Shown here one piece after another: positions 1 to 19,332 of a DNA stretch of 24,000 nt. The DNA comes from an uncultured Conexibacteraceae bacterium (lineage in GTDB: Bacteria > Actinomycetota > Thermoleophilia > Solirubrobacterales > Solirubrobacteraceae): NCBI GenBank assembly GCA_963761675.1, contig CAVXIA010000015.1, positions 62,054-86,053 of the forward strand. The letters are read 5' to 3'. How positions within the stretch are numbered: the stretch's first letter is position 1; each line of letters starts with the position of its first letter. The notes beneath the pieces were generated by a model that was not told the DNA's origin, ran no database searches, and worked only from the letters and a program-made list of their open reading frames with translations. The translations under genes were made by a program, and so were the position numbers.

Positions 1-1337
1 CGCTGTTCCTCGCGGAGACCCCGGATCTCGCACTGACGGCGGTGGTCGCGTTGCGGGGCGAGCTCGTGCTTCTGCAGACGCTGGCCCAGGAGACCGGTTG
101 CGTCAGATGGCGAGCACTGGCAGATTGGTGGCGCGCAACGGCATGGCCGGAGCGTGAGCTGCTCGAACGCGATGATCGAGCCCAGATCGATCGGTGCTTG
201 GAGGGCCACAGCCTGACCAGGCCGGACGCGGATCTGATCGACCGATCGGTGTCCGGGCTCGACGTGTTCGCGATTCCCTATGGGCCCGTGAGATCCGGGA
301 TCTTTGAGGCGATCCAGTTTCAGATCGAGACCGGCGGCGAGGACATCACACACCTGCAGACCCGGCCGTTTTTCAAGCACCGCGGCATCGAAGCACGCTT
401 CACCGGTATGGACCCGGAGAACGCCGTGATCGTCGCCGAGCGTGTGGCGGGGATCGCCAGCAACGCCTACGCAAGCGCTTTCTCGGAGGCCGTGGAGCGG
501 GTGGCGGGCGTGAGCGCGCCCCGCCGTGCGCAGCGCTGGCGCGCGGTCTATTGCGAGCTCGAACGGATGGCCTGCCACCTGGACGTGATCGCCAAGGAGG
601 CGGAGACCACGGCGCTGTACGTCGGGCAGGCGCGGTTCCAGATTCTCAAGGAGAGCGTGCAACGGATACGGGCTCAATTGACGGGCAGCCGGTTCGGACG
701 AGGCATGATCGTTCCGGGTGGTGTTCGGGCCGAAGGTGAGCTGAGTCTCGAAGACCTGAGCACGGGGCTTGACGCGCTCGCACGCGATCTGCGACGTGAC
801 TGCCGCATGTTCCTGGGTACCCCGTCGATGACAGATCGCCTGATCGGCAGCGGTCGTCTTGACCGCGCGGTGACAGAGGAGCGGTGCGCTGTGGGTCCGC
901 TCGCACGCGGCTCGGGGATATCCACTGACGCGAGACACGAGCGCCCATACGGTGCGTACGCGCGCCTGGGGGTGCGGGTGATGACCGATCGTGGCGGTGA
1001 CGCGATGGCCAGAATGAGCGTCCGGTTCGCTGAACTATTCGAGTCGCTCCGCCTTGTGCGCCAGACGACGGAGCAGCTTCGCCGCCACGATGGTGAGCTC
1101 CTCGCCGCGATCCCTGAGCACCTCACCGGCACGGCGTGCGGCTGGGCCGAGGCGCCGCAGGGCGAGCTGGTGTTCTGGGTGGAGATGCGGAACGGCGCCG
1201 TGCACCGCGTGCACATCGCTTCACCATCGCTGCGGAACTGGGCGCTGTTCGATGGCGCGTTCCCGAATGATGTGCTGACCGACTTTGCGTTCATAGAGCA
1301 CAGCTTCGGTCTCACCCCCGCGGGAGCTGATCGCTGA
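1..1337 (+). CDS. HycE/NuoC-NuoD-like [NiFe]-hydrogenase large-subunit homolog lacking the Ni-Fe cysteine ligands (5' partial; the frame is open to the window edge)
   Basis: The frame of ORF 42..1337 stays open back to nt 3. A NuoC-like 'AWPERELLERD' segment is followed by NuoD/HycE motifs: 'GPVRSGIFEAIQFQIETGGEDI', 'FFKHRGIE', 'AVGPLARGSGISTDARHERPYGAY', 'AEAPQGELVFWV' and 'IASPSLRNW'. The L1 position reads 'AERVAGIASNAYA' and the C-terminus reads 'FIEHSFGLTPAGADR', so neither has the cysteines. Confidence 0.8.
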   Translation, partial: LFLAETPDLALTAVVALRGELVLLQTLAQETGCVRWRALADWWRATAWPERELLERDDRAQIDRCLEGHSLTRPDADLIDRSVSGLDVFAIPYGPVRSGIFEAIQFQIETGGEDITHLQTRPFFKHRGIEARFTGMDPENAVIVAERVAGIASNAYASAFSEAVERVAGVSAPRRAQRWRAVYCELERMACHLDVIAKEAETTALYVGQARFQILKESVQRIRAQLTGSRFGRGMIVPGGVRAEGELSLEDLSTGLDALARDLRRDCRMFLGTPSMTDRLIGSGRLDRAVTEERCAVGPLARGSGISTDARHERPYGAYARLGVRVMTDRGGDAMARMSVRFAELFESLRLVRQTTEQLRRHDGELLAAIPEHLTGTACGWAEAPQGELVFWVEMRNGAVHRVHIASPSLRNWALFDGAFPNDVLTDFAFIEHSFGLTPAGADR

Positions 1338-1960
1338 TGCTCGAGTGGATCTACCGCGGCCTCAGCAAAGGCCGGATCACAACCACCTACCCACACCGGG
1401 CAGAACACGGCCCCGCTGGCTTCGAGGGCACTGTCGAGATCCTGGCAGCGGGCGAGCGCGAGCGCGCCGCGACCGCGTGCTCTGAGGGGGCGATCGTCGT
1501 GATCGGGGATCCCGCCCGACTCTCGAGTGATGCCTCCGGCCTGCGCCGCTCGATTCATGTGCGCCACATCGACTGCGGTTCCGACGGGTCGGAGGAGTGG
1601 GAGATACATGCGTTGTGGAACCCGCATTACGACATCCAGCGACTGGGGTTCTTCCTCACCAACGCCCCTCGGCACGCCGACGTTCTGTTGGTGACGGGAC
1701 CCGTCACCACACCGTTGCGAGAACCGCTTCGGCGCACCTGGGAGGTCATGCCCGCGCCGAAGGCGCTGATCGCCGTCGGCGACGACGCCTGCGGCATCGG
1801 GTTGCATGCGGACAGAGCAGGCGGGCTGACGGCCGGAGGCGTCGACGGTGTCCTGACAGTCGACGTATATGTGCCCGGCACGCCGCCACCGCCGATCATG
1901 ATCATGCAGGGACTACTGCTTGCAGCCGGCGTTCACACCCCAAGGCAGGTGGCAGCATGA
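1337..1960 (+). CDS. HycG/NuoB-like small-subunit homolog with an N-terminal HycF-like stub; Fe-S ligands largely substituted
   Basis: 'SIHVRHIDCGSDGSEEWEIHALWNPHYDIQRLGF..APRHADVLLVTGPVT', 'KALIAVGDDACGIG', 'GGVDGVLTVDVYVPGTPPPP' are collinear with NuoB/HycG motifs. The N-terminal 'GLSKGRITTTYPHRAEHGPAGFEG' resembles the HycF/NuoI N-terminus. The start overlaps the upstream stop (TGATG at 1335-1339). Confidence 0.8.
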   Translation: MLEWIYRGLSKGRITTTYPHRAEHGPAGFEGTVEILAAGERERAATACSEGAIVVIGDPARLSSDASGLRRSIHVRHIDCGSDGSEEWEIHALWNPHYDIQRLGFFLTNAPRHADVLLVTGPVTTPLREPLRRTWEVMPAPKALIAVGDDACGIGLHADRAGGLTAGGVDGVLTVDVYVPGTPPPPIMIMQGLLLAAGVHTPRQVAA

Positions 1961-3936
1961 ACGTCCTTTTTGCCATCGGAATGAGCCTGCTCGCGCTGGC
2001 CATACCGGTGGCCTGGATATCGCCTTCGACCGCCGGCCCCAGGCTGGGTTCGATCTGCTCGGCGGCCGGCTGTCTGCTGCTTGTAGCTGTTGGGCTTGCG
2101 GCCGCGCTCGGGCGCAGCGAGCCGGTTGTGAATCTCGGATCATGGATCGGGTTCGGTCACAGCGCACTTCGAGCCGACGGACTCGCCGGCATCTTTCTCG
2201 CGCTCACGGGGATCACCGGCGCTGCCGTATCGCTTGCCTACGCTGAGCTACCGGCTGGGAAATGGCTGACGATGCTCTCGAGCGCTCTGATTCTGTTCGT
2301 GGTGGTCGCGATCGGATCAGACAACGGGTTTCTGTTCTTCCTTGCCTGGGAGGCGATCACCGTCTGCGTGTACCTGATTGCAAGCGCCGGCCGCACACAC
2401 GAGGATCTGGTCGGCGGTTACCTGACGGGCGGGCTGGCGAAGCTCGGCGGTGCCGCCCTGCTGGCCGCGTTCGGGTTGCTCTACGGGCATACGCACAGCT
2501 TCTCCCTCGAGGTCTGGCGGCACGCGCACCTCTCCGCGGGAACGCGCGACCTGCTGTTCGCGCTATTCCTCAGCTGCTTCGCGACGAAGGTCGGAGTCCT
2601 TCCGTTGCAGGGCGGACTCCCCGCCGGATACGGGTCGGCCCCGCGGCTCGGGGCCGCGTCATTGTCGGTCGCGTTGTGTGCGGGGTTCTACGGACTCTGG
2701 CGATTCACGTTCGACGTGCTTGGCCCCCTGCCGACGGGATGCGGAGATGCGCTGCTGATCATCGCCTCCCTCACCGCGGTCACGGGGGTCACATACGCGC
2801 TGACACAGAATGACATGCGCGGATTCCTCGGCTACTCGACGGTCGAGCACGCCGGCGTGGCATTGGTCGGATTCGCGGTCGCGCTGCTCGGGCATGCGGC
2901 GCACCAGCCGAAGCTCGCCGCCATCGGCCTTCTCGCGTGCACGCTCCAGGTCTGCGCGCACAACCTCTCAAAGACGCTGTCGCTGATCAGCATCGACCGT
3001 GTGATCTATGCGACTGGAAGGCGAACGATCGACCCTCTCGGCGGGATCTCGCGACTACTGCCGGTCACAGCGGCAACATCCGGGGTCGCCGCGCTCACGC
3101 TGGCCGCGATCCCGCCTCTGGGCGGGTTTGTCAGCGAATGGTTCACGTTCGAGGCGCTGTTGCAGGGCTTCCGCATGCCGACACTGCTGGCACGCTTGCT
3201 CTGCGCTCTGGCGGCGGCGATCCTGGCCTTGACCGCCGGGCTCGGGTTGCTCGCTTTTGCGAAGTACTACGGCTTCGTCTTCCTCGGTCGCGCGCGTGAA
3301 AACCTTGGTGAGGTGCGTGAGCCTTCGAGATGGCCGCTTGGGGCGGGGGCCCTGGCGGTGGTGGTCCTGTTCCTGGGTGCGGCTGCGCCGTGGGAGATAC
3401 ATGTGATCGGAGCTGGCCTGCGCCCTCTGCTCGGATTTGATCTTTCCGCGAGCACGATCAGTCACCCGCTCGTTCTCGGGCCGGTGTTCCAGAACTTCTC
3501 GGTCCTGGACCCAACCTGGCTATGTGTCGTGCTGCCGTGTTATGCGATCGTCGCCGCGACGATCGCCTTCGGCGCGGACAGGCGTCGCGGCGCGCGCCGC
3601 GCCCCGGTCTGGGTGACCGGCAGCGGCGCTGAGCTCGCGGCCGTGCAATACCGGCCGTCGGCGTACTCGAACCCCATGCGCGTGATCCTTCGGGGCCCGC
3701 TCGGTTTCCGACGCCGTCTGTCACCCGTCGCCGGCGACGGCGCCGTGGGGCACCTCGTGCTCGAAACCCGGGTCGTCTTGGTCATCGACCGTTACCTCTA
3801 TCGACCGGCCGCCACGGTTGCGTTGCGGATTGCCGAGCGCGTACGCGCCACCCAATCCGGACGGCTGTCCGTCTATCTGCTGTACATGCTGACGGCCCTG
3901 CTGATCGCCCTGTCCCTCGTCCCCATTCTGCACTGA
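1957..3936 (+). CDS. HycC/HyfB/NuoL-type antiporter-like membrane subunit (proton-conducting membrane transporter family)
   Basis: Polytopic hydrophobic protein of 659 aa from ATG 1957 (ATGA overlap with the upstream stop). 'GFLFFLAWEAITVCVYLI', 'LGGAALLAAFGLLYG' and 'GLWRF' are typical of NuoL/M/N-like subunits. The C-terminal 'VWVTGSGAELAAVQYRPSAYSNPMRVIL' resembles the HycC/HyfB tail. The track ORF start at 1597 is an R-rich off-gene leader. Confidence 0.85.
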   Translation: MNVLFAIGMSLLALAIPVAWISPSTAGPRLGSICSAAGCLLLVAVGLAAALGRSEPVVNLGSWIGFGHSALRADGLAGIFLALTGITGAAVSLAYAELPAGKWLTMLSSALILFVVVAIGSDNGFLFFLAWEAITVCVYLIASAGRTHEDLVGGYLTGGLAKLGGAALLAAFGLLYGHTHSFSLEVWRHAHLSAGTRDLLFALFLSCFATKVGVLPLQGGLPAGYGSAPRLGAASLSVALCAGFYGLWRFTFDVLGPLPTGCGDALLIIASLTAVTGVTYALTQNDMRGFLGYSTVEHAGVALVGFAVALLGHAAHQPKLAAIGLLACTLQVCAHNLSKTLSLISIDRVIYATGRRTIDPLGGISRLLPVTAATSGVAALTLAAIPPLGGFVSEWFTFEALLQGFRMPTLLARLLCALAAAILALTAGLGLLAFAKYYGFVFLGRARENLGEVREPSRWPLGAGALAVVVLFLGAAAPWEIHVIGAGLRPLLGFDLSASTISHPLVLGPVFQNFSVLDPTWLCVVLPCYAIVAATIAFGADRRRGARRAPVWVTGSGAELAAVQYRPSAYSNPMRVILRGPLGFRRRLSPVAGDGAVGHLVLETRVVLVIDRYLYRPAATVALRIAERVRATQSGRLSVYLLYMLTALLIALSLVPILH

Positions 3937-4376
3937 TGTTTCAACGAATCCTGCTCGCTTGGGACGGCTCCGACATCGCCCAGCGCGCCCTCGACGTGGC
4001 CATCGACGTCACCCGCCGTTACGACGCCGAGCTCGTTGCCGTCGCCATCGCATACTCGCCCGCACACGCCGAGACCAAGGCCGACCGCGAGGAGACGGCC
4101 GACGCTGCACACCGGTACCTCAGTCGTACCTTCGACGAGGTTGCCGACCGTGCGCAACGCGCCGGTGTCGATGTCTCCCTCGAGATCATCGACGGAGACA
4201 GCCCCGCCCGCGCGCTCCTCGATTACGCGCACCGGCACGCATTTGACCTGATCGTGTGCGGGCACCACCACAGCGGCCGCGCCGGTCGTCTGCTGCTCAA
4301 GGGTGTAGCCCCCGAGCTGATCGAGGATGGCTGCCCGACGCTGGTCGTGGGCGATGAGGACCCCCTGGCGCCTTGA
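3936..4376 (+). CDS. Universal stress protein (UspA family)
   Basis: 'ILLAWDGSDIAQRALDVAIDV....AELVAVAI', 'DLIVCGHHHSGRAGRLLLKGVAPELIEDGCPTLVV' gives the typical USP architecture. The ATG overlaps the upstream stop (TGATG at 3934-3938). Confidence 0.8.
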   Translation: MFQRILLAWDGSDIAQRALDVAIDVTRRYDAELVAVAIAYSPAHAETKADREETADAAHRYLSRTFDEVADRAQRAGVDVSLEIIDGDSPARALLDYAHRHAFDLIVCGHHHSGRAGRLLLKGVAPELIEDGCPTLVVGDEDPLAP

Positions 4377-5452
4377 ACGACGATTGCCTCAAACTCACGA
4401 CGTACTTCGGGGAGCGGGACCGAACCGACCGCGGTCTCCTGGCCGACGACCTCATGGCCGTCTACGGCGACCATCACGTGGCGGCCGGCATCCTTCTACG
4501 GGGTGCAGAAGGATTCGGCCGGCTCCACCACCTGCACACCGACCGGCTTCTGACGCTGTCCGAAGATCTCCCGGTTGTCTCGATCGCCGTCGACGAGCGC
4601 GCCCGCATCGAGCTGCTGCTGCAAGAGCTGCTTCAAATCAAGCGTCGCGGGCTCATAACCCTTGAACGGGCGCGGCTGTTGTCCGGAGAGATAAGGCAGG
4701 TGCAGCTGCCCGATGAGTTTGGGGAGGCCACGAAGCTGACGGTCTATCTCGGACGCCAGGATCGCGCAGGTGACGCTCCGGCCTACGTTGCGCTCTGTGA
4801 CCTCATGTACCGCCGCGGCCTGGCTGGGGCGAGTGTCTTTCTCGGCGTCGACGGCACGCGTGGCGGCCGTCGAGCGCGCGCGAGGTTGTTCGCTCGCAAC
4901 GCCGATGTACCGATGATGCTGATCGCCGTCGGGTCCGGAGAAGGGATCGCAGAGGTGCTTCCGGAGCTTGGCGGACTGCTCCACGCGCCCCTGATGACAC
5001 TGGAGCGGGTGCGGGTCTGCAAGCGCGACGGCGAGCTGCTCGCAAAGCCGCATGAGCTGCCGGCGACGGACGAGCATGGCCTGGGGATGTGGCAGAAGCT
5101 CATGATCTACACGTCGAACGTCGCGGCGCAACATGACCGCCCTTTGCATATGGAGATCATCCACCGGCTGCAGGCCGAAACCGAGGCAGCCGGCGCCACC
5201 GTGCTACGCGGGATGTGGGGCTACCACGGCGACCATGCGCCACACGGCGACCGCCTTTTGCAGGTCCGACGTCACGTGCCAGTCTGCACGATCGTCATCG
5301 ACCGTCCTGATCGGATCGCTCGGTCGTTTCAGATCATCGACGAGATCACCGCAACGCACGGCCTCGTGACAAGCGAGATGGTTCCGGCGGCACGGGCCAT
5401 GAGCGAAGCTCACATGCGCGGCGGTCTGCGGCTCGCCAGACATCGGTTCTGA
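4373..5452 (+). CDS. Protein with three tandem DUF190 (COG1993, PII-like) domains
   Basis: Three internal repeats of about 105-115 aa each begin with a 'KLT(T/V)Y' or 'KLMIY' strand. Each contains an 'A(G/A)xxLRG..G(F/Y)G' or 'GASVFLGVDG' segment and ends with a 'L(I/M)TLER' or 'LVTSEM' strand, the DUF190 pattern. The TTG start overlaps the USP stop (TTGA at 4373-4376). Confidence 0.75.
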   Translation: MNDDCLKLTTYFGERDRTDRGLLADDLMAVYGDHHVAAGILLRGAEGFGRLHHLHTDRLLTLSEDLPVVSIAVDERARIELLLQELLQIKRRGLITLERARLLSGEIRQVQLPDEFGEATKLTVYLGRQDRAGDAPAYVALCDLMYRRGLAGASVFLGVDGTRGGRRARARLFARNADVPMMLIAVGSGEGIAEVLPELGGLLHAPLMTLERVRVCKRDGELLAKPHELPATDEHGLGMWQKLMIYTSNVAAQHDRPLHMEIIHRLQAETEAAGATVLRGMWGYHGDHAPHGDRLLQVRRHVPVCTIVIDRPDRIARSFQIIDEITATHGLVTSEMVPAARAMSEAHMRGGLRLARHRF

Positions 5453-5483: not shown

Positions 5484-5891
5484 ATGGCGATGACCTTGCG
5501 GACCAGCGGAATCAGGCAGCCGAGCATCTGGGCGAGCGTCGTCAGCCACGACGCGCCCGGGTTGCGCGGCTGGCTGCTTGCACTCGGATTCACACAGGAT
5601 CTGATGATCCCAGGGGAGAGCGAGGGTTCGATCCACCACTGCCAACTCGATTGGCCCGAGGGTGGTCGTGTGCTGCTCTCGAGCACCGACGAGCGTCCAA
5701 CCCCCTGCCGGCCCGGTACCAGCTCGCTGCACGTCGTCACCGCAGACCCTGACGCCGTGATGGCTCGCGCAGTCTCGCTGGGAGCGGTTGTGATTCACCC
5801 ACTCACCGATCAGACCGACTACCCGTCACGCGACTGCACGATCGCGGACCCTGACGGGAATCATTGGACATTCGCGACCTTCGCCGGATGA
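5484..5891 (+). CDS. VOC (glyoxalase/bleomycin-resistance/dioxygenase) family protein
   Basis: Size of 135 aa, with 'LRGWLLALGFTQD' near the N-terminus and a C-terminal 'DYPSRDCTIADPDGNHWTFA', the pattern typical of small VOC-fold proteins. Confidence 0.65.
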   Translation: MAMTLRTSGIRQPSIWASVVSHDAPGLRGWLLALGFTQDLMIPGESEGSIHHCQLDWPEGGRVLLSSTDERPTPCRPGTSSLHVVTADPDAVMARAVSLGAVVIHPLTDQTDYPSRDCTIADPDGNHWTFATFAG

Positions 5892-7048
5892 GGCCGAGCC
5901 CTGCTGCCAGCTCGCGCTCGTCTGTCGGCATGGTCGGCGCCGGACAGCTTGCCCGGATGGCCTGGCAGGCCGCGATCTCGCTGGATCTCGAGCTGGTCTG
6001 CCTCGGTGCGCAGGGCGATGCCGCCGCGCGGGCCGGGGTTTCGCTGCTTGAGGGGTCGGGTCGGGACGGATCGGCCCTGGGCGTGCTTGCGAAGCATTGC
6101 GATGTGCTGACGTTCGAGCATGAACTCGTGGACCTCGCGGCTGTGGCTGGGCTGGAGGCTGGAGGAACGCCGGTGCGCCCCTCCAGCGCGGCGCTGGAGC
6201 TGGCCGTGGACAAGCTCCGGCAGCGGAGGACATTGTCGGACTTGGATGGGGTTGCTGTTCCGGCACACGCTTCCGCCGGCGCCGTCACCGACGTCCACGC
6301 CTTCGCCGCGGCGCATGGATGGCCAGTGGTTCTGAAGGCGCGCAGTGGTGGGTACGACGGTCGAGGCGTCTGGATGTGCATCGACCGGAGGGATGCCGAA
6401 GCGGCCTTCGCCGAGGCGACCACGGCCGGCCTCGAACTCTACGTCGAGGAGGCGGTTGAACTCGCTCAGGAGCTTGCCGTCATCGTCGCACGCTCACCCT
6501 CGGGTGATCTAGCCGTTTACGCACCGGTCGAGACCCAACAGGTCGATGGCATGTGCCGCTCGGTGCTGATGCCGGCCGGAATCCCGGAGACGATGGCCCT
6601 GGAGGTCGAGAACCTGGCGCGGACGCTCGCCGAGCACATCCGGCTGGAGGGGCTCATGGCCGTTGAGCTGTTCGTGACGCGCGATCGTCGTCTGCTGGTG
6701 AACGAACTGGCTCTGCGGACCCACAACACGGGACACCTTCACACCGAGGCCTCCGTCACCTCGCAGTTCGAGCAGCACCTGCGCGCGGTCCTCGACCTGC
6801 CCCTCGGGCTCACGACCCCGGTCGCGGCGGCGGCCGCGATGGTCAACGTGGTGGGACCGCGTGACGGTTCGGACCCGGCATCGCGCTTGGCGGACGCGCT
6901 GAGCGTACCGGGGGCCCGTGTGCATCTTTACGGCAAGAGCGCACGGCCCGGACGCAAGCTCGGGCATGTCACGGTCTGCGCCGACACGCCTGAGGAGGCG
7001 CTTGCTCGGGCGCGGGAGGCAGCCGATAGGCTGGAGCGGGATGTCTGA
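5888..7048 (+). CDS. purK: N5-carboxyaminoimidazole ribonucleotide synthase
   Basis: '[12 protein letters not shown]', 'VLTFEHE', '[19 protein letters not shown]', '[11 protein letters not shown]', 'GRKLGHVTV' form the ATP-grasp PurK signature, and the gene sits next to purE. ATG 5888 forms an ATGA overlap with the VOC stop. ATG 5930 is an alternative start. Confidence 0.9.
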
Positions 7049-7556
7049 ACCGATCGTCGGCGTGGTCATGGGGTCTGACAGCGACCTGAGCGTCATGAGC
7101 CAGGCCACCGCAGTGCTCGATGACCTCGGTGTGCCCGTGGAAACGCGGGTGGTGTCGGCCCACCGCACCCCGGTCGAGATGATCGCCTACGGACAGCAGG
7201 CTGAGGCGCGGGGTCTGGCCGTGATCATCGCCGGCGCCGGTGGCGCGGCTCACCTTCCCGGGATGCTGGCCGCGGTCACCTGCCTGCCGGTGATCGGTGT
7301 ACCTGTGTCGCTCAAGAATCTCGATGGGCTGGACAGTCTGTTGTCGATCGTGCAGATGCCCAAGGGCGTTCCGGTCGCGACCGTCGCCATTGACGGTGCT
7401 CGTAACGCCGGACTGCTGGCCGCCAGGATCCTCGCGGTGCGGGACCTCGATCTGCGCGAGCGGCTGCGTGGTTTCGCCGACGCACAGGCCCAGGCCGCAC
7501 TTGAGGCCGACGCGCGGGTCCGGCAAGGGGAGACCTTCCCGCGGAAAGGTTCTTGA
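7041..7556 (+). CDS. purE: N5-CAIR mutase (class I PurE)
   Basis: '[14 protein letters not shown]', 'VVSAHRTP', '[15 protein letters not shown]', 'PVIGVPV', '[16 protein letters not shown]'. The ATG at 7041 overlaps the purK end by 8 nt. Confidence 0.92.
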
Positions 7557-7628
7557 GACCTCAGGTATCCGGGCTGGGACCCGGCGGCAGCGCTGGCCGC
7601 GAGCCGTGCCTCGCTTGGCACGCCGAGC

Positions 7629-7871
7629 TCAGTGTGGACGGCGCTCGCTCCGCGCGTCGAAAGCTCGATGGCGACGGCACCAGTCGCGAAGCCGGCCAGG
7701 TTGCTCAGCCAGCGGCCGTGCCGGTCGCGCCATCGACCTGGCAGACGCTGCGTCACCGTCACCTGGCCTGCTGGTCGACAGGTGCGTGACGAACACGACC
7801 TCGTCGTAGCGGGCGCGGGGCGCCGGCATGCTCGCAATCAGTTGCAGTTGCGTGGTCGAAGCGATGAACAA
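7629..7871 (-). CDS. Hypothetical small protein; frame integrity uncertain
   Basis: TTG at 7871 lies 6 nt downstream of a perfect AGGAGG (complement of 7878-7883). The LacI-type palindrome sits 4 nt further upstream. The first ~35 codons look coding, but after that an overlapping frame looks more protein-like. Confidence 0.3.
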   Translation of the reverse strand: MFIASTTQLQLIASMPAPRARYDEVVFVTHLSTSRPGDGDAASARSMARPARPLAEQPGRLRDWCRRHRAFDARSERRPH

Positions 7872-7887
7872 GTTCTACCTCCTAGGG

Positions 7888-7901
7888 TGCAACCGGTTGC
7901 A
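7888..7901. promoter_or_regulatory. LacI-family operator-like perfect palindrome TGCAACCGGTTGCA (copy 1)
   Basis: Perfect 14-bp palindrome matching the TGNAANCGNTTNCA pattern of LacI/GalR operators. It lies just upstream of the SD of the small minus-strand ORF and is identical to the copy at 8991-9004. Confidence 0.55.
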
Positions 7902-7982
7902 AAGAACGGGACGAGAGCAGCCCCGCATCAGGCAGGGGGCGAATGGGGGAGACCGGCGGTGCGAAGAGTGATATCGGAGCTG

Positions 7983-8990
7983 TCATCGGGCGGAGTCCCT
8001 GACGACCAGCTCAGCGGGAAGCGATGTGCTGGTGATGGCACCCGTCTGCACGCGCTGAACCACGCCATCGGCGAGCAGTCGGCCGGCGAGCATCGCGTCC
8101 TGGCGAATCGTTGTCAGCGACGGCTTGACGTGGGCCGCGAGTGGCACATCGTCGTAGCCGACCACCGCGATGTCTCCCGGGACGCTGCGGCCGCTGTCGG
8201 CGATCACCTCCATCGCGGCGATCGCCATGACGTCGCTGTTCACGAACACCCCGTCGATCTCGGGTGCGCTGTCGAGCAACTCCGCCATTGCGACGCGGGC
8301 CGAGCCCTCCGACCACGCGGTGTGGGTGATCAAACCGGGATCCGGTGTGCGTCCGGCTGCCGCAAGGGCGGCCTCGTAGCCGCGCTGCCTCTCGGCGACC
8401 TCAGCCGCGTGCTTGGGGCCGCCGAGAAACGCGACCTTCTGGCGCCCGATGCCCAGCAGGTGCTCGGTCGCAAGGCGGCCTCCGCGGACGCTGTCGCCGC
8501 TGACTGAACAGAAGGAGCCATCGGAAGATGGCTGTCCCCAGACGATGAAGGGTGCGTCGGCGTCCCGCAGGGCGCGCATCTGCTGACGCGTGCACTGTGC
8601 CTCGAGCATGATGAAGCCGTCGGCGCGCCCGGTTTCCAGGTAGCGGCGCGGCCAGGAGACGTCGCTGGGCCCGACGTGAATCATCAGCAGGTCGTAATCG
8701 CTCCTGCCGAGTCCGGCGGAGATCCCGGTCATAAGTTCGAGCATGAAGGCGTCTGGCACGACGCTGCCGGCCTTGTAGCCGTAGGCGACCAGCGCGATCG
8801 CCCCACTCTGCTGGAGGCTCAAGCGGCGGGCCCGAGCGTCGACCTCGAAGCCGTGCTCCTTGGCGATGGCGCGCACCAACTCCTTTGTCTCAACGCTGAT
8901 CACGGGGCTGTCGTTGAGCGCCCGCGACACGGTGGATTTGGAGACCCCGGCCAGGCGGGCGATGTCGGCTATAGAGTTCACGCTCGCCAT
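7983..8990 (-). CDS. LacI family transcriptional regulator
   Basis: N-terminal HTH 'SIADIARLAGVSKSTVSRALNDSPVISVETKELVRAIAKEHGFEVDARARRL' followed by a periplasmic-binding-protein-like sugar-binding core ('IALVAYG', 'DGFIM', 'VAFLGGP', 'DIAVVGYDD'). Start is either ATG 8990 or ATG 9005. The track start at 9032 is less likely. Confidence 0.9.
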   Translation of the reverse strand: MASVNSIADIARLAGVSKSTVSRALNDSPVISVETKELVRAIAKEHGFEVDARARRLSLQQSGAIALVAYGYKAGSVVPDAFMLELMTGISAGLGRSDYDLLMIHVGPSDVSWPRRYLETGRADGFIMLEAQCTRQQMRALRDADAPFIVWGQPSSDGSFCSVSGDSVRGGRLATEHLLGIGRQKVAFLGGPKHAAEVAERQRGYEAALAAAGRTPDPGLITHTAWSEGSARVAMAELLDSAPEIDGVFVNSDVMAIAAMEVIADSGRSVPGDIAVVGYDDVPLAAHVKPSLTTIRQDAMLAGRLLADGVVQRVQTGAITSTSLPAELVVRDSAR

Positions 8991-9004
8991 TGCAACCGGT
9001 TGCA
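8991..9004. promoter_or_regulatory. LacI-family operator-like perfect palindrome TGCAACCGGTTGCA (copy 2; probable autoregulatory site)
   Basis: Identical 14-mer directly abutting ATG 8990 and overlapping ATG 9005 of the LacI-family gene. Confidence 0.6.
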
Positions 9005-9261
9005 TGGTACCGCCAATCGCGGCGGACGGCAACCGGCCACGGTGCGCCGCGGCAAATCAGCGCCCGACGGCAACCTGCGAGGGCTGCCTCGTGGGAAATC
9101 CCTTCCGGGCCTGGCGCGGATACCTCTCCAGGTCTCTGCTGGTGGAGTCTGCGGACGGGTGTCTCGCGCCGGCGGGCTGGGGCGGTCGATGGCCCCCGGT
9201 AGTGCGGCACGGCCTTCCCGGCCTCTCCGGGCGCGAGCGGGGCTTGGTGTGAGGGCGCTAT

Positions 9262-9301
9262 GCGGGGTGGGGCGGCCGCGCGAGGCGGCGCCCCACCCCG
9301 C
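9262..9301 (-). terminator. GC-rich hairpin downstream of the PLDc_N/SHOCT gene (terminator-like, no U-tract)
   Basis: GCGGGGTGGGGCG (9262-9274) is the perfect reverse complement of CGCCCCACCCCGC (9289-9301), with a 14-nt loop. The hairpin begins 7 nt past the stop codon at 9308-9310. Confidence 0.5.
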
Positions 9302-9307
9302 CCCAGA

Positions 9308-9718
9308 TCAGCTGCTGCTGCCGCTCAGGGCCTTTGCCTTGAGCGTGTCGAACTCCTCCTGCGTGATCGTGCCGCTGTCAAGCAGCTGCTTGGCGTTGGC
9401 GATCTCGCTCGCCGAGCCGCTGCTGCCGGCTGTCTGGCGAACGTAGTCGTCGAACTGCGCCTGAGCTTTCTGAGCGTCCTTGTTCTGACGATCGGCCATG
9501 CCGTTGTGGTAGGCGATCAGGTAGATCAGGACTCCCAGGAACGGGAGGATGATGATGAATATGACCCAGAAGGCCTTGCCCCACCCGGATATGTCCTTGC
9601 GGCGGATGAGGTCCATGAAGACCGTAATCGCGATCCAGATCCAGACGATGAACGCGAAGAAGATCAGCATTGACCACAGCACACCGAGGAACGGATACGA
9701 CGTTGCGGTGATAAGCAT
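9308..9718 (-). CDS. Small membrane protein with a PLDc_N-type N-terminal domain and a C-terminal SHOCT domain
   Basis: Two TM helices with 'FWVIFIIILPFLGVLIYLIAY' (PLDc_N pattern). The C-terminal 'AKQLLDSGTITQEEFDTLKAKAL' is the SHOCT pattern. I chose ATG 9718 as the start; the track start at 9784 adds a non-hydrophobic leader. Confidence 0.75.
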   Translation of the reverse strand: MLITATSYPFLGVLWSMLIFFAFIVWIWIAITVFMDLIRRKDISGWGKAFWVIFIIILPFLGVLIYLIAYHNGMADRQNKDAQKAQAQFDDYVRQTAGSSGSASEIANAKQLLDSGTITQEEFDTLKAKALSGSSS

Positions 9719-9944
9719 TTGGTTGGACTTACTCCCAGAATGGTTGTGGGAATTAACGGGATAGGACCTCCATCCCAGAGCCAACAGGGGCGAGGTCCCG
9801 ACTTTGTGATGCAGGACACTACCGCTTGGCGACGTCGAGTGTCTTCGGTGTGGTCCCGCAACGTCCAGGGCAGGGCCTCCGTGTGTCCCAGGGGCGCGGC
9901 CCCGAAGCGCGGAACCATCTGCGGCATGCCGGGGGTTATATGGG

Positions 9945-10154
9945 GTGATGAACGATTTTGATGAGTTCGTTGCCGGCAGCGTCGAGCCGCTGCTGAGGAC
10001 GGCCTACCTGATCACGTGGGACGGCGGCGATGCGGGCGCCGACCGCGCCGCCCTGCCCGAGCGGAGCCCGCTGCAGCTTCGGCTATGGCTCGAGCGGCGG
10101 GCCGGGCGCCGCCGCCGCCGGTACATCGTCTACGAGCGTCACAGGCTCGTCTGA
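9945..10154 (+). pseudogene. Probable remnant of an ECF (SigE-family) sigma factor gene
   Basis: The first ~28 codons, 'MNDFDEFVAGSVEPLLRTAYLITWDGGDA', match the characteristic N-terminus of actinobacterial ECF sigma factors (FxxFVxxxxxxLLRTAYLLTGD). The remainder is R-rich, non-sigma-like, stops at 69 aa and overlaps the RDD gene tail. Confidence 0.3.
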
Positions 10155-10712
10155 CTGAGCGCCTGAAGTCCCCGGGGTGGCCAGCGGGCCACCCCGGGGG
10201 GGCTGACCATGCTCGGAGTCGACAGCCTGCTGGCGGAGTTGCTCCCGGACGGCCTTCTCGGTCTCCTCGTCGATGTCCCAGCGCACCACGGTATCGGCCA
10301 TACGATCCTGGAATCCGCGCCGCCGCGGGTCGGTCAATATCGGTATCAGGCCGGCGCCGAGCGGGATGATCGCCAGGGTCAGGCCAATGAATCGGCGCAC
10401 GGCCTGCGTGAAGGTGACATCACCTCCGCCGACGCCGCTGAGCACGCGAATCCCGAGGATGCGATTGCCGACCGTCTGGCCGGTCAGTGCCCAGAAGGTC
10501 ACGAAATAGAACAGGCTCCATACCCACCAGGCTGCCGCGCCGAGCACAGCCCCGACGATGTCGATGTTCCCGCTCACGCCCAGCAGCGATGCGATCAGGT
10601 TGACCGCGCCGCCGAGCAGCACCGCAATCGCGTTGACGACGAGGGCGTCGATCAGAAACGCAACCCCGCGGGTCACGAGACCGACGTAGCCGACCGGCGC
10701 GGTACGAGTCAC
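10083..10712 (-). CDS. RDD family membrane protein
   Basis: 'GLVTRGVAFLIDALVV', 'TGQTVGNRILGIRV', 'RRRGFQDRMADTVVV' form the RDD-domain pattern with three TM segments, followed by a low-complexity C-terminal tail. The GTG start overlaps the upstream stop (GTGA). Confidence 0.8.
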   Translation of the reverse strand: MTRTAPVGYVGLVTRGVAFLIDALVVNAIAVLLGGAVNLIASLLGVSGNIDIVGAVLGAAAWWVWSLFYFVTFWALTGQTVGNRILGIRVLSGVGGGDVTFTQAVRRFIGLTLAIIPLGAGLIPILTDPRRRGFQDRMADTVVRWDIDEETEKAVREQLRQQAVDSEHGQPPRGGPLATPGTSGAQSDEPVTLVDDVPAAAAPGPPLEP

Positions 10713-11380
10713 TCGCCGGCCTGGGGCTCTCGTCGCCCGAGCAGGCGGCGGGCGATGCGCTCGGCAACATCATCCGCGACGACCGTCCGTGTTCGGACCC
10801 CGACGGCGACATCGTCCGCCAGGCCGACCGTCTGGCGGCGGAGCACCGCACGCAGCTCGGGCGAGCTCGTGACGTACTCGAGCACCTGTTGCATCTCCTC
10901 GCTCGCAAGCAGACGCGCGGTGATCTCTTCGAGCATGCGGCTGTCCATGACGCGATCGATCAAGCGATCGAGTCCGGGATCGTCGAGGGCGTTGCCGATC
11001 AGCGCCTCTGTGGCCGGGTGGTTGATCACGACGCTCACGATCCGGTCGAAGGCGCCGGAGCGCAGCAGCCGGTCGAGCAGCTCATCGCCGAGCCCTGAGC
11101 GGGCGAACTCGTCGGCCAGTGCCCGCGACAGCTGCGCCGCGAGCCGACGCGCCTGCGCAGCGGCGTCGGCGGTCACGAGCACGCCGTCCTGGCCCCATCT
11201 GTAGGAGACGGCGTCGGCGCGAGCACGCACCGGTGCCCACGGAGACGAGTTCCAGATCGCGGCCGCCGGCCATGCCGCAGCCGCCAGTGCCCGTGCGCCG
11301 ACGGCGACCGGGCGGCGCGAGCGTCGGGCCACGTTGGCCGTCGCGCCGACCACGACATACGGGATGGGAGCGCGTTTCAA
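10709..11380 (-). CDS. Hypothetical protein (helical, Leu/Arg/Asp-rich), translationally coupled to the RDD gene
   Basis: Long ORF with consistently G/C-rich third positions. I recognise no family. The exact start is uncertain (TTG 11380 or a downstream GTG). Confidence 0.55.
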   Translation of the reverse strand: MKRAPIPYVVVGATANVARRSRRPVAVGARALAAAAWPAAAIWNSSPWAPVRARADAVSYRWGQDGVLVTADAAAQARRLAAQLSRALADEFARSGLGDELLDRLLRSGAFDRIVSVVINHPATEALIGNALDDPGLDRLIDRVMDSRMLEEITARLLASEEMQQVLEYVTSSPELRAVLRRQTVGLADDVAVGVRTRTVVADDVAERIARRLLGRREPQAGE

Positions 11381-11477: not shown

Positions 11478-12272
11478 TCAGCTGGTCAGATGGACCGCGG
11501 CCTCCGGTGTGGCCACGTGGAAACTGAAGCTCTCCTGGAGGTAGAGGTTGACCTGCTCGGCATCGTGTGAGTCGTAGCCCAATGAGATGTCCTGGCCGCT
11601 GTCGAAGAGGAAGTCACCGCCGCGGCGGCTGAGCAGCACAGCGCCCTCGATGCCGGGAACCCACACGATCGGGCCTCCGAGCAGCAGTGACACGTGTTCT
11701 CTGAGCGGGTAACCGCCCGGCACGGGAGCGGTGCCCAGCAACCGGTAGTGATCCTGGCCGGCACCGAGTGCGTACGGTCCGTCGACTCCCGATCCGAGCA
11801 GCAATTCGATCGCCGCCGTCACACGTTCTGCGTAGTTCTCCGCTTTGATGCGCTTCAGCATCGCGTGCGGGGTGGCCGCGATCACCCCGTTGAACGTTCC
11901 GGCCCAGCCGCCGAAGACGGCGTCACCTTCGGCCCGTGCGATCTCGCGAGCGGCGGTGTCGAGCGGACCCAGATCGGCATCGTCGGCGCCGCGATCGACG
12001 TCCTGGAGCTCGCTTCGCGAAAGGCTGAAATCGGCGCGGAGCTCGATCAGCGGCAGGACGCGTCGTCGCAGCGCAGTCACCCCTTCGGGGCTGCCTTCGA
12101 TCGCCTCGACCCGCCCAAGGTTCGTCGATGAGTGTGACCAACCGCGAGGGCCGTCGAAGTCGACCAGCTTGCGCGCACCCAGAGCCGGGGTCAGGCGCTC
12201 GCGGGCCTCGTGGTCGAGCAGCTCCCAGCCGGCATCGCTGATCGGCGCGTGCGAACGAAGCAGATGATTCAC
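11478..12272 (-). CDS. Family 1 encapsulin nanocompartment shell protein (linocin M18-like)
   Basis: At 264 aa it is collinear with mycobacterial Cfp29-type encapsulin: 'LLRSHAPISDAGWELLDHEA', 'LIELRADFSLSRSELQDVDRGADDADL', 'GVDGPYAL', 'GYPLREHV', 'SRRGGDF', 'LGYDSHD...VNLYLQESFSF'. A GTG start sits in a GTGA overlap with the DyP stop. The SD GAGAGGAG lies 7 nt upstream. Confidence 0.92.
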   Translation of the reverse strand: MNHLLRSHAPISDAGWELLDHEARERLTPALGARKLVDFDGPRGWSHSSTNLGRVEAIEGSPEGVTALRRRVLPLIELRADFSLSRSELQDVDRGADDADLGPLDTAAREIARAEGDAVFGGWAGTFNGVIAATPHAMLKRIKAENYAERVTAAIELLLGSGVDGPYALGAGQDHYRLLGTAPVPGGYPLREHVSLLLGGPIVWVPGIEGAVLLSRRGGDFLFDSGQDISLGYDSHDAEQVNLYLQESFSFHVATPEAAVHLTS

Positions 12273-13282
12273 GCTGATGCTCCTCTCAGACCGCCGATCC
12301 CCAGCGATCCGTCGTGGTTTGTCGTCTCAGGTTCGATGACGGCGGCGCTCGGCTCGAGCGGGGGATCTGCCATGCCCGCGAGCTGATCCGTGGTGGGCAC
12401 GAAGAACAGTGTTCCCGTCACGGCGGTGGAGTAGTCGAGCACGCGGTCGTGATTGCCGGGCGGGTTGCCGATGAACATGTTGCGCAGCATCTGTTCGATC
12501 ACGCCCGGGTCAGACGCGTAGCCGATGAAATACGTGCCGAACTCGCCTGCCCCAACGCGGCCGAAGGGCATGTTGAAACGCACGATCTCGAGCTCCTCTC
12601 CGGTCTCATCGACGATCGTGTTGAGTGCGACGTGCGAGTTCGATGGCTTGACGTCGTCAGGCAGCTCGATATCGCTGAGCTTCGTGCGTCCGATCACGCG
12701 CTCCTGTTCCTCGACCGAAAGGGAGTCCCAGGCCGCCAGGTCGTGCAGGTACTTCTGGACGATCACGTAACTGCCCCCGGCGAACCCCGGATCCTCGGCG
12801 CCGATCGTGACCGCGGTCCTCGCCGCTTCGCCCTCCGGGTTCTCGGTGCCGTCGACGAAGCCGAGCAGGTCGCGCTCGTCGAACGAGCGGAATCCATGGA
12901 CCTCGTCGACGATTCGGACCAGCCCGCCCAGCCGTTCGGCGATCCGCTGCGCGAGCTCGAAGCAGAGATCAAGCCGGCGCGCACGGATGTGGAAAAGGAG
13001 ATCGCCCGGGGTGGAGGCCGCCGTGTGGGCTGCGCCGGAGAGCGGGACGAAGCGATGCAGCCCCAGCGGCTTCGGGCACAGAGGGCCCAGGCGATCCCAG
13101 AGGTCTGAGCCGATCCCCACCACGCAGCTGAGGCACGCCTCGGGGATGCGGAAGCCGACGGAGCGCTTGAGACCGGGAATGTCGGCGAGCGCGTCACGGA
13201 GCTGATCCTCGTCACCGGCCGGGGCGATCATCACGAGAAAGATCGCCGCCTCCGTCGATGGTTGAAGGATCGTCTGCTGCAT
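12269..13282 (-). CDS. DyP-type (dye-decolorizing) peroxidase carrying a C-terminal encapsulin targeting peptide
   Basis: 'AAIFLV', 'GFVDGTENP', 'GGSYVIVQKYLHDL', 'SHVAL', 'IVRFNMPFG', 'GTYFIGY' are DyP motifs. A flexible P/A/E linker is followed by 'DGSLGIGGLRG'. Start is ATG 13282 (MQQTILQP...) or GTG 13315. Confidence 0.9.
   Translation of the reverse strand: MQQTILQPSTEAAIFLVMIAPAGDEDQLRDALADIPGLKRSVGFRIPEACLSCVVGIGSDLWDRLGPLCPKPLGLHRFVPLSGAAHTAASTPGDLLFHIRARRLDLCFELAQRIAERLGGLVRIVDEVHGFRSFDERDLLGFVDGTENPEGEAARTAVTIGAEDPGFAGGSYVIVQKYLHDLAAWDSLSVEEQERVIGRTKLSDIELPDDVKPSNSHVALNTIVDETGEELEIVRFNMPFGRVGAGEFGTYFIGYASDPGVIEQMLRNMFIGNPPGNHDRVLDYSTAVTGTLFFVPTTDQLAGMADPPLEPSAAVIEPETTNHDGSLGIGGLRGASA
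12272..12313 (-). other. Encapsulin cargo-loading (targeting) peptide at the DyP C-terminus
   Basis: The last 14 codons encode DGSLGIGGLRGASA, matching the SLxIGSLKG-type targeting peptide consensus of DyP cargo proteins. Confidence 0.8.
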
Positions 13283-13438
13283 CACGCTCGCGCCCGTCTC
13301 GTCGCTCACTCGCACTCACTGTAAGACTTCGCGGCGATCGACGGCAACGCTGGGGGAGGATTCTGGCTGACATCGAATCAGTACAGCCGGGGCCGCGCCC
13401 AGTCCTGAGCGCCCGTCGGCGCCTGCTTACATGGAGAC

Positions 13439-15558: not shown

Positions 15559-16476
15559 TTGGTCGCCCGAGTCCAGCTGCCACGGCTACCTGTCCCGTCC
15601 GAACAGCTCTCCAAACTGAACGGATGCCATGCCCGGGCGTCGGTGATCACACTGCAGTCAAAGCGGCTTCCTGAGCCACGACGAGTTGCGCCGCCGTCGC
15701 TGCGGGTCGGCCTGATCGGACTCGTGGGGGGTCTGCTCGCGGCTCTGGTTGGAGGCGCCGACGGGTTCTGGCTCTGCCTCCCGGCCGGGCTGTTGGCCGC
15801 GGCCGTCGCTCATACCAGCCGCGGTGGGCTGTGGAGCGCCGTGCCGGTGTGGCTGATCGGCGCCGCGGCGGCCGCAGCAGTTCAGCGCGGCGTGATGCCG
15901 CCGCTGTGGCTGGCGGTGCTCGTGCCGTGCGCCTGCCTGTCCGTGACCCTGGGCACCGGGGGACGCCTGCGACGCGAGCGCGACGCGCTGCGGGACGCCG
16001 CTCTCAGCGACCCGCTCACGGGGCTGGCCAACCGCCGCATGCTCATGTCGATGGCCGAGTACGAGATCGCTCGGCACCACCGAGCCGATGGCCGGTTCAC
16101 CGTCGTGATGTTGGACCTCGACGGGTTCAAGCCGCTCAACGACCGCCACGGCCACGCCGCCGGCGATCAGATGCTGCGGGATGTCGGTGCCGCGCTGACC
16201 CGCGCGCTGCGCGCTCAGGACACCATCGCTCGATTCGGCGGAGACGAGTTCTGCGTCATCGCGCCCGAGACCGAGCACCCGCGGGTGTTGGCGGCGCGGA
16301 TCGCCGGCGCGGTGTCAGAGGCCGCCGGTGGCCTCGATTCGCTCAGCGCCAGCGTCGGCCTGGCGGTATTCCCGGAGGACGGGACGTCGATCGAGCTGCT
16401 GCTGCGTGCGGCCGATGAGCGGCTGCTGGCGGCCAAGCGGCGACTTCACGGCGACGCCGAGCGGCGAGCCGCGTAG
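15559..16476 (+). CDS. Membrane-anchored diguanylate cyclase (GGDEF domain) with an intact I-site
   Basis: 'DPLTGLANRR', 'VVMLDLDGFKPLNDRHGHAAGDQML', 'RAQDTIARFGGDEFCV'. The N-terminal region holds 3-4 TM helices. The start is uncertain (TTG 15559 or GTG 15643). Confidence 0.85.
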   Translation: MVARVQLPRLPVPSEQLSKLNGCHARASVITLQSKRLPEPRRVAPPSLRVGLIGLVGGLLAALVGGADGFWLCLPAGLLAAAVAHTSRGGLWSAVPVWLIGAAAAAAVQRGVMPPLWLAVLVPCACLSVTLGTGGRLRRERDALRDAALSDPLTGLANRRMLMSMAEYEIARHHRADGRFTVVMLDLDGFKPLNDRHGHAAGDQMLRDVGAALTRALRAQDTIARFGGDEFCVIAPETEHPRVLAARIAGAVSEAAGGLDSLSASVGLAVFPEDGTSIELLLRAADERLLAAKRRLHGDAERRAA

Positions 16477-17669: not shown

Positions 17670-17792
17670 GGCCGGGAAGCTACTGGCTTGTGCATGAGAA
17701 GGTCCGTCGAACGATTCGCGTGAACGTGGATAGACTTGGTTGACCCAATCGGTTTTGTGGGGTCAGCCCGGCCCGCACCAGGCCCGTCTCAG

Positions 17793-18927: not shown

Positions 18928-19332
18928 ATGCCACACGAAGCATCCGAACTCTCCTGGCTGGTCGTGAAGCCGAGCCCATGGTCCGTCGAGGAGACCGTGA
19001 CGCGTCTGTCGGATGTGATCGCGACTCGTGGTGCGAAGCTGTTCGCCGTAATCGATCACAGCGGCGAAGCCCGAGACAGCGGGCTCGATCTGCGAGATAC
19101 GAAGGTCGTGATCTTCGGCAGCCCGCTGGCCGGAACGCCTGTGATGGAAGACGCGCCGCTCGCTGCGCTCGACCTGCCGCTGAAGGTGTTGGTCTTCGAT
19201 GACGCCGGGGCTACCAAGGTCTGCTATGCCTCGCCAACCGGGCTCGCAGATCGCTACGGGCTGTCGCCGGATCTGGTGCCCAGGCTCGCCGCAATCGATG
19301 TGATCACCGATGCCGCGCTCGCGCATGGCTGA
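18928..19332 (+). CDS. DUF302 domain protein
   Basis: 'SVEETVTRLSDVIATRGAKLFAVIDHSGEARDSGLDLRDTKVVIFGSPLAGTPVMEDAPLAALDLPLKVLVFDD' matches the DUF302 pattern. Confidence 0.8.
   Translation: MPHEASELSWLVVKPSPWSVEETVTRLSDVIATRGAKLFAVIDHSGEARDSGLDLRDTKVVIFGSPLAGTPVMEDAPLAALDLPLKVLVFDDAGATKVCYASPTGLADRYGLSPDLVPRLAAIDVITDAALAHG

Follow-up and report, generated by a model that had tools for sequence, protein, structure and literature searches.

We have analysed a 24-kb stretch of DNA (24,000 nucleotides, hereafter the window) from contig CAVXIA010000015.1 of an uncultured Conexibacteraceae bacterium. Near its 5′ end, three genes related to subunits of complex I and a gene for a universal stress protein (USP) are followed directly by a gene whose product is made of three DUF190 domains, and which we refer to as 3xDUF190 (Table 1). 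In most related loci, 3xDUF190 lies behind a pair of crcB genes, the genes of Fluc fluoride channels, and this pair is missing from the window.

A single chain with three DUF190 domains

That the gene codes for three tandem DUF190 domains was proposed in a first-pass annotation from repeats visible by eye, and profile searches bear this out. The whole protein matches the Pfam DUF190 profile (PF02641) in three stretches with E=4.5e-67 and 222.8 bits, against a curated cutoff of 23.4, and each third of the chain, when scanned singly, covers the 97-position profile almost end to end (positions 2-96/97). The Pfam domain count, which had been suggested as a check, recovers three full-length domains with E values of ~1e-20 to 1e-23 each. 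By BLASTP, repeat 1 was also detected in repeat 2 (28% identity, 34.3 bits, E 4e-8) and in repeat 3 (32% identity, 38.1 bits, E 2e-9), where the best of 100 shuffles scored at most 23.9 bits. Pairwise BLASTP gave no match between repeats 2 and 3, which are connected only via the family profile. All three repeats align column for column with the single-domain proteins TM0021 (PDB: 1o51) and PH1503 (PDB: 2dcl), the sole matches in a profile search of the PDB. The 3xDUF190 protein is a single chain carrying three full DUF190 (PII-like) domains.

The TTG start codon of the gene shares four nucleotides (TTGA) with the TGA stop of the upstream USP gene, and this overlap is the usual signature of translational coupling from USP to 3xDUF190. 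In relatives, the same start position is occupied by ATG or GTG, followed by the same N-terminus, MN(D/E)DCLKLT. A database protein (P0001) is 100% identical to the window protein, which retains all of the columns (71/71) that do not vary across an alignment of 78 orthologues, itself included. The ratio of nonsynonymous to synonymous substitution rates (dN/dS) is 0.10-0.13 between the window gene and its relatives and is indistinguishable from that of pairs of crcB-bearing relatives (0.08-0.18); since dS is near saturation, these ratios address only long-term constraint. Judging from these comparisons, the window gene is intact and under purifying selection. The G+C content of the window is 64-71%. 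NCBIfam has no model for the 3xDUF190 protein, and a scan for promoters and terminators around the gene returned nothing informative.

Table 1. Features of the 3xDUF190 locus (nucleotide positions within the window; aa, residues of the 3xDUF190 protein)
Feature	Position	Strand	Residues	Remarks
NuoD/HycE-like large subunit	42..1337	+		Pfam Complex1_49kDa, NiFeSe_Hases; may extend past window start
NuoB-like subunit	1337..1960	+		Pfam Oxidored_q6
HyfB/NuoL-like antiporter-type membrane subunit	1957..3936	+		Pfam Proton_antipo_M; listed reading frame starts at 1597, likely start near 1957
USP gene	3936..4376	+		Pfam Usp, E 1.7e-21; syntenic in L001-L005, L007, L009
Deletion junction	4356..4376	+		~1.07 kb of relatives missing (small membrane reading frame, crcB1, crcB2)
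3xDUF190 gene	4373..5452	+		intact reading frame, 359 codons + stop, TTG start, TGA stop
DUF190 domain 1	4391..4675	+	aa 7-101	76.5 bits, E 2e-21; aligns to TM0021, PH1503
DUF190 domain 2	4733..5017	+	aa 121-215	74.3 bits, E 1e-20
DUF190 domain 3	5096..5383	+	aa 242-337	81.2 bits, E 7e-23

The structure of 3xDUF190 was predicted by AlphaFold2 from an alignment of 78 sequences with 57-100% identity. The model, with a mean predicted local distance difference test score (pLDDT) of 84.8 and a predicted template modelling score (pTM) of 0.88, contains three consecutive β-α-β-β-α-β units at residues 4-104, 118-218 and 238-339, connected by linkers of 13 and 19 residues. The repeat boundaries drawn beforehand by eye (5-105, 118-220 and 240-345) agree with these blocks of predicted secondary structure. 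Comparison with crystal structures of DUF190 proteins, which had also been suggested, shows that the single domains superpose on 1o51 (Foldseek template modelling score, TMt, 0.90; root-mean-square deviation, rmsd, 1.4 Å) and on 2dcl (TMt 0.74-0.79), with the PII-like protein CPII (5d4p) as a weaker single-domain match (TMt 0.67). The nominal top matches from Foldseek (5f9p, sulfur oxygenase reductase and coproheme decarboxylase) were rejected, as their TM scores were ~0.2 and their rmsd ~17 Å.

Since a pTM of 0.88 would be unexpected for three independently tumbling domains, a compact, defined single-body assembly is predicted. Given this compact fold and the matches of the single domains to DUF190 structures, a covalent pseudo-trimer, which the first-pass annotation had put forward as a possibility, is the natural and most likely reading of the model. 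The PDB entry of PH1503 (2dcl) holds three chains of one sequence. Mean-field direct coupling analysis of 388 family sequences (Neff80 = 104) returned plausible contacts within the domains and a strong coupling between repeats 1 and 2 at residues 39-162 (rank 2), together with couplings at 38-163 and 71-166, which would place the loop hairpin of domain 2 against β2/β3 of domain 1.

In an alignment of 47 sequences with 34-60% identity, the three domains are conserved to an equal degree, and the T-loop region is the best-kept part of each. Every domain has a loop motif of its own: RG.xGFG...S.DLP in domain 1, the basic motif G.DG...G.R.RA...N..VP (residues 158-180) in domain 2, of which G.DG...G.R.RA holds at >=80%, and G.WG.G...P.G......R..P in domain 3. 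These motifs, and the repeat identities given above, agree with the earlier claim that the three copies have diverged. The Arg-rich T-loop-like region noticed in repeat 2 is real, with R167 and R169 invariant in the 78 orthologues, and, as each domain has its distinct conserved motif, it is a feature of the family and not a peculiarity of the window. This loop is predicted as a β-hairpin (residues 160-169), and the loop of domain 3 (residues 286-302) has low pLDDT. The pattern of conservation indicates that the triplication is old and that each copy has a fixed, distinct role.

None of the three domains matched the canonical PII profile (PF00543) at E<=1, and 3xDUF190 is therefore placed outside the canonical PII proteins (GlnB/GlnK). 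Nor was a B-loop motif of the GDGKIF type found: judged by eye, the equivalent positions read RRGLITLE, HAPLMTLE and THGLVTSE.

Word-indexed database searches returned at least 8000 matches to the protein, nearly all of them ~357-362 aa in length and, where named, called "DUF190 domain-containing protein" (NCBI) or "PII-like signaling protein" (JGI); the named carriers include Mycobacterium interjectum, M. lacus, M. paraense and M. parmense. Among the carriers that can be cultivated are Conexibacter sp. S30A1 (locus L005) and Mycobacterium sp. 141. In a HMMER scan of 1.84 billion representatives at 50% identity, 1727 sequences matched at E<=1e-3, 774 at E<=1e-10 and 270 at E<=1e-30, and the best-scoring matches are mostly collinear and full length (320-370 aa), down to ~36% identity. 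Matches in genomes include Solirubrobacterales, Conexibacter, Mycobacterium, Pseudonocardia, Nocardioides and one Acidobacteriota bin, and the closest homologous loci are from Conexibacter, Conexibacteraceae and other Solirubrobacterales genomes, which makes a soil-dwelling member of the Thermoleophilia the most likely source of the window. By its distribution, 3xDUF190 is an old and widespread family, mainly of Actinomycetota, and its architecture is not peculiar to the window. A literature search found no paper on the triple DUF190 form, the family being only mentioned in passing; for Rv3071, which we take to be a possible homologue in M. tuberculosis, it found nothing relevant. At four loci from long-read metagenome-assembled genomes (L031, L032, L034 and L035, around 10001-11080), the 3xDUF190 frame is broken into several pieces, which are either pseudogenes or the result of indel sequencing errors.

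Genomic neighbourhood and loss of the crcB pair

The neighbourhood of 3xDUF190 was surveyed by clustering the open reading frames (ORFs) of 35 genome loci and 80 metagenome loci, which are given L numbers here, and crcB counts were limited to the 92 loci having at least 800 nt of upstream sequence. Immediately upstream of 3xDUF190 in relatives are two tandem genes of ~125-130 aa, both matching Pfam CRCB (E 4e-27 and 1e-22). Both are present in 76 of the 92 loci, one locus has a remnant, and 15 have none. The stop codon of crcB2 overlaps the start of 3xDUF190 in relatives (ATGA or GTGA), and the genes downstream of 3xDUF190 are not conserved. The survey of triple-domain architectures and their neighbours that the first-pass annotation had called for thus describes a large family whose predominant neighbour is the crcB pair, and on these counts the pair is the ancestral and predominant genomic partner of 3xDUF190. 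Single-domain DUF190 genes from diverse contigs were found directly behind one crcB gene in 4/4 cases, so that in our sample, small as it is for the single-domain form (n=4), one crcB goes with one DUF190 domain and two crcB genes go with three fused domains. In a group of loci without crcB (L079/L082, 2865-3008; L074, 1-129), the first ~48 residues of 3xDUF190 are also encoded by a fragment found ~1.1 kb upstream of the complete gene, which suggests a local duplication or rearrangement.

In the window, 3xDUF190 and USP follow a cluster that the first-pass annotation had described as antiporter-like. The NuoD-like subunit is without all four cysteine ligands of the [NiFe] site, reading RVAGIASNAY and, at its C-terminus, TPAGADR with no Cys (by eye), and the NuoB-like subunit apparently keeps 2/4 of the cluster-N2 cysteines (by eye, against the canonical NuoB motifs). 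These cysteine losses argue for an Ehr/complex-I-like module rather than a hydrogenase. The HyfB-like subunit scores 346.8 bits against the NCBIfam model of hydrogenase-4 subunit B, under its cutoff of 667. The region 42-3936 (+) is the tail of a membrane module like complex I or hydrogenase-4, and it looks like an Ehr-type ion-translocating complex that is possibly redox-dead.

The closest relatives of the window locus are L001-L004, with 79-81% protein identity, and also L005, L007 and L009. Their gene order is NuoH-like, antiporter-like, NuoD-like, NuoB-like, HyfB-like, USP, an ORF of ~97 aa, crcB1, crcB2 and 3xDUF190, with neighbouring genes that overlap or abut. Alignment by blastn shows that window positions 4356->4374 correspond to 8934->10002 of L002, and likewise in L001-L009, with collinearity on both sides, and that the USP frame of the window now ends on the TGA that terminates crcB2 in relatives. 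No crcB was found by tblastn in the whole 24-kb window. The ~97-aa ORF between USP and crcB1 (L002, 8943-9246; L004, 8948-9246) is conserved, has a basic N-terminus and hydrophobic segments, and its start overlaps the USP stop; it probably encodes a small membrane protein.

The crcB pair has been lost from three other loci. In L077 (1030-1045), the USP stop overlaps the ATG start of 3xDUF190; in L036 (~3950-4000), a 45-nt spacer is left, the last ~20 nt of which resemble the 3′ end of crcB2; and in L052 (3879-3998), the last 120 nt of crcB2 are kept. The 3xDUF190 gene is full length at all four crcB-deleted loci. The loci nearest to the window and to L077 hold both crcB genes. The closest informative relative of L036 is L052 and vice versa (80%), and crcB-bearing loci follow at a slightly greater distance (78-79%). 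Because their junctions differ, the four losses are, on the alignments, separate deletion events and not assembly artefacts. The overlap of the USP stop with the 3xDUF190 start in the window and in L077 might have arisen from a deletion between two start/stop-overlap junctions, or from selection for translational coupling.

The first-pass annotation had argued that coupling of 3xDUF190 to an antiporter-like module, rather than to crcB, points to a different regulatory target. Our comparison does not support this argument: the crcB pair prevails in the family, the window is a derivative with a ~1.07-kb deletion, the antiporter-like cluster is adjacent in a minority of loci and, in L004, the cluster itself is preceded by fluoride-riboswitch-like aptamers. 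The position of the window gene beside the antiporter-like module is, by the same alignments, secondary and came about through the crcB deletion. Nevertheless, as four crcB deletions leave 3xDUF190 intact behind the Ehr-like cluster, and as a Mycobacterium clade has the gene next to a TetR gene with no crcB, 3xDUF190 may also have a function that goes further than the adjacent channel.

Downstream of 3xDUF190, no window DNA aligned with the closest relatives, which indicates that the operon ends at this gene. The next genes are a glyoxalase/VOC-like ORF (5484-5891) that overlaps the start of purK (5864-7048), and then purE (AIRC, ending at 7556), all within 5484-7556 (+). At 11478-13315 (-), a gene for a DyP-type peroxidase is directly followed by one for an encapsulin shell protein (Linocin_M18, E 8e-71), a classic encapsulin-cargo pair. 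Further genes, unrelated to 3xDUF190, encode a GGDEF diguanylate cyclase (15559-16476), a TauE/SafE exporter (17736-18782) and then a DUF302 protein (18928-19332), and a MalT-like LuxR regulator (22212-23966).

Fluoride riboswitches near 3xDUF190

Two loci carry a fluoride riboswitch (Rfam RF01734) above the gathering threshold: L060 (51.7 bits), ~170 nt upstream of crcB1-crcB2-3xDUF190, and L018 (49.8 bits), upstream of MutS_V-MutS_V-crcB-crcB-3xDUF190. Two consecutive genes with MutS_V domains (~520 and 510-620 aa) are found in L018 (6119-9207), L012 (~6120-9232) and L035 (~6787-10004). In L018 the pair lies between the riboswitch and crcB-crcB-3xDUF190, and in L035 it directly precedes 3xDUF190, with no crcB. 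From this placement, the MutS-related paralogues seem to belong to the fluoride regulon.

Locus L004, which holds the whole syntenic cluster, contains three RF01734-like aptamers below the gathering threshold, at 685-746(-), 827-888(+) and 994-1058(+), with 24.7-30.8 bits. Those at 827-888 (30.8 bits) and 994-1058 (26.9 bits) stand immediately ahead of the gene that opens the complex-I-like cluster, and the former has the pseudoknot pairing GAGGC/GCUUC seen in the above-threshold examples. The aptamer on the opposite strand precedes a small Cys-rich DUF2180-like ORF (285-590). In L003, a further sub-gathering aptamer (1045-1102(+), 22.6 bits) lies just upstream of the syntenic complex-I-like cluster. 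In the aptamers at 994-1058 of L004 and 1045-1102 of L003, the P1 loop is incomplete, and both are possibly degenerate. On the strength of these positions, the antiporter-like cluster is part of the same neighbourhood associated with fluoride. Among the genes most commonly associated with fluoride riboswitches, formate-hydrogen-lyase-type genes and Na+/H+ antiporters have been reported (PMC11139923), and a uspA gene is found in a fluoride-riboswitch-controlled operon of Enterobacter cloacae (PMC5533749).

The link to a riboswitch is not universal, and we have rejected it as a general rule for 3xDUF190 loci, as several relatives are without detectable RF01734. At the gathering threshold, no Rfam riboswitch was detected in the window or in L004, L005, L010, L017 and L030. 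At E<=1, none was found in the window, L010, L002 and L005. The 5′ end of the window operon lies outside the window.

Possible function of 3xDUF190

We propose, with a probability of about 0.6, that 3xDUF190 is an accessory protein of the fluoride-stress response, PII-like, covalently joined and asymmetric, and that its partner is probably the two-gene Fluc channel. The three diverged DUF190 domains, with their PII-like ferredoxin fold, would fold into one compact pseudo-trimer, so that its three T-loop regions would be permanently non-equivalent, and with them the three clefts between the domains. The ancestral partner, the crcB pair, would form a heteromeric Fluc fluoride channel, translationally coupled to 3xDUF190 and controlled by a riboswitch in some genomes. 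By analogy with GlnK-AmtB and SbtB-SbtA, 3xDUF190 could have an accessory or regulatory function in the fluoride-stress response, as a subunit in the cytoplasm. A small ligand may bind in one or more of the inter-domain clefts, and a specialised loop, for which domain 2 with its invariant basic hairpin offers the best candidate, may contact the cytoplasmic face of Fluc. As the window gene is intact and under purifying selection, its product presumably still works, the partner being either a fluoride exporter whose gene lies elsewhere or a different component of this stress operon. DUF190 was earlier proposed to be a GlnK-like channel modulator (PMC3543383).

Several observations weigh against this proposal. 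No adjacent crcB is present in the window or in the 15 relatives counted above, which include six Mycobacterium genome loci and the closely related metagenome locus L114, with a TetR gene in the neighbourhood; since such loci exist, 3xDUF190 is not strictly dependent on a channel encoded in cis. Most of the crcB-3xDUF190 loci examined are without a detectable riboswitch, and as the window has neither crcB nor a riboswitch, the fluoride link of the window copy is by descent only. The threefold packing was not distinguished by a cyclic-symmetry test on the coupling analysis (Neff ~104), in which correlations between blocks were 0.009-0.032 in the same orientation and 0.024-0.055 when transposed. 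Nor did our literature search find biochemical or genetic support for a function of any DUF190 protein.

The comparison with known systems helps to put the proposal into context. Single-domain DUF190 proteins (COG1993/UPF0166), such as TM0021 (1o51) and PH1503 (2dcl), share the Pfam family, the fold and, with the relatives of the window gene, the upstream crcB partner. They are ~100-120 aa long, whereas 3xDUF190 joins three diverged copies, each with its own loop motif, in one chain of ~359 aa, and its family goes with two crcB genes instead of one, the window copy with none. FlJ of Streptomyces cattleya is likewise a DUF190 protein from a fluoride-related cluster of an actinomycete, being encoded by flJ in the fluorination cluster, but it belongs to a biosynthetic cluster and does not lie behind crcB (PMC9173684); a figure legend in the same paper mentions duplicate flJ copies in some clusters. 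With GlnK-AmtB and SbtB-SbtA, 3xDUF190 has in common the PII-like fold, co-transcription with the gene of a small-solute channel and a conserved T-loop as candidate contact. Unlike these systems, it falls outside PF00543, is predicted to be a covalent asymmetric trimer rather than a homotrimer, and its putative target is a dual-topology dimeric channel and not a trimer.

It is quite unlikely, in our judgement, that the triple PII-like protein regulates the neighbouring antiporter-like (Ehr/complex-I-like) module and not a fluoride channel. That the four different crcB deletions (window, L036, L052 and L077) keep 3xDUF190 right behind the Ehr-like cluster and USP would fit such a target, as would a dN/dS in the window that is the same as in crcB-bearing relatives. 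A precedent could be seen in the carboxysome-associated CPII, a structural neighbour by its PII-like fold, which is encoded beside a NuoL/antiporter-type membrane subunit; CPII has no detectable sequence relationship to 3xDUF190, is a homotrimer and belongs to a bicarbonate/ADP context. The Ehr-like cluster is nearby in only about one quarter of the loci, and the upstream genes are unrelated at most crcB-crcB-3xDUF190 loci. Moreover, where both are present it is crcB rather than an antiporter gene that overlaps 3xDUF190, and single-domain DUF190 genes pair with crcB alone.

Another reading is that 3xDUF190 is a soluble sensor or buffer for fluoride or ion stress that does not act on a channel, for example a PII-like nucleotide- or anion-binding protein reporting energy or Mg-fluoride status to other targets. 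We regard this as unlikely. Loci with no adjacent crcB, among them a coherent Mycobacterium clade beside a TetR regulator, would be explained by such a protein, and so would the presence of DUF190 (flJ) in organofluorine biosynthesis clusters. That the loops are the most conserved part of each domain, each with a different motif, also suggests several distinct binding surfaces. Against it stand the tight translational coupling to crcB2 at most loci, which is typical of physically interacting partners, and the failure to find a canonical PII ligand-binding motif or a PF00543 match. That the gene is without function in the source genome, and simply has not had time to decay after the loss of crcB, is very improbable: the usual partner genes are absent from the window, but the ORF is full length, every residue invariant in the 78 orthologues is kept, dN/dS is low (0.10-0.13), the start codon is still translationally coupled, and the three other independent crcB-deleted loci also hold an intact 3xDUF190.

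Within the proposed accessory role in fluoride stress, a narrower version is put forward tentatively, as one that we hold to be possible but doubtful: 3xDUF190 could be a dedicated asymmetric cytoplasmic partner of heteromeric Fluc, with one fused trimer for a two-gene channel in place of one free domain for a one-gene channel. If so, fluoride channels would have their first protein regulator, and PII-type trimers their first natural single-chain example in which the three loops are functionally distinct, and the repeated survival of 3xDUF190 after crcB deletion behind a riboswitch-associated complex-I-like antiporter module would imply a second target there. The regulation of fluoride export was named as a future research area in a 2024 review (PMC11139923). 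Our literature search found no protein partner or regulator of Fluc channels, and the PII-like gene that is conserved behind crcB and translationally coupled to it is an obvious, so far unstudied candidate for such a partner.

We would like to point out that proteins with the triple architecture are frequent in soil Actinomycetota and are already listed in databases by a generic name, and that the window copy is ordinary apart from the deletion. It is this deletion that, together with the three other loci that lost the channel genes and kept the PII-like gene, provides a natural experiment on a role of 3xDUF190 beyond the channel. PII-type proteins are among the most widespread signal integrators and are normally symmetric homotrimers. 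A natural single-chain PII-type protein with three permanently different loops and clefts would show that asymmetry can be hard-wired into such a sensor.

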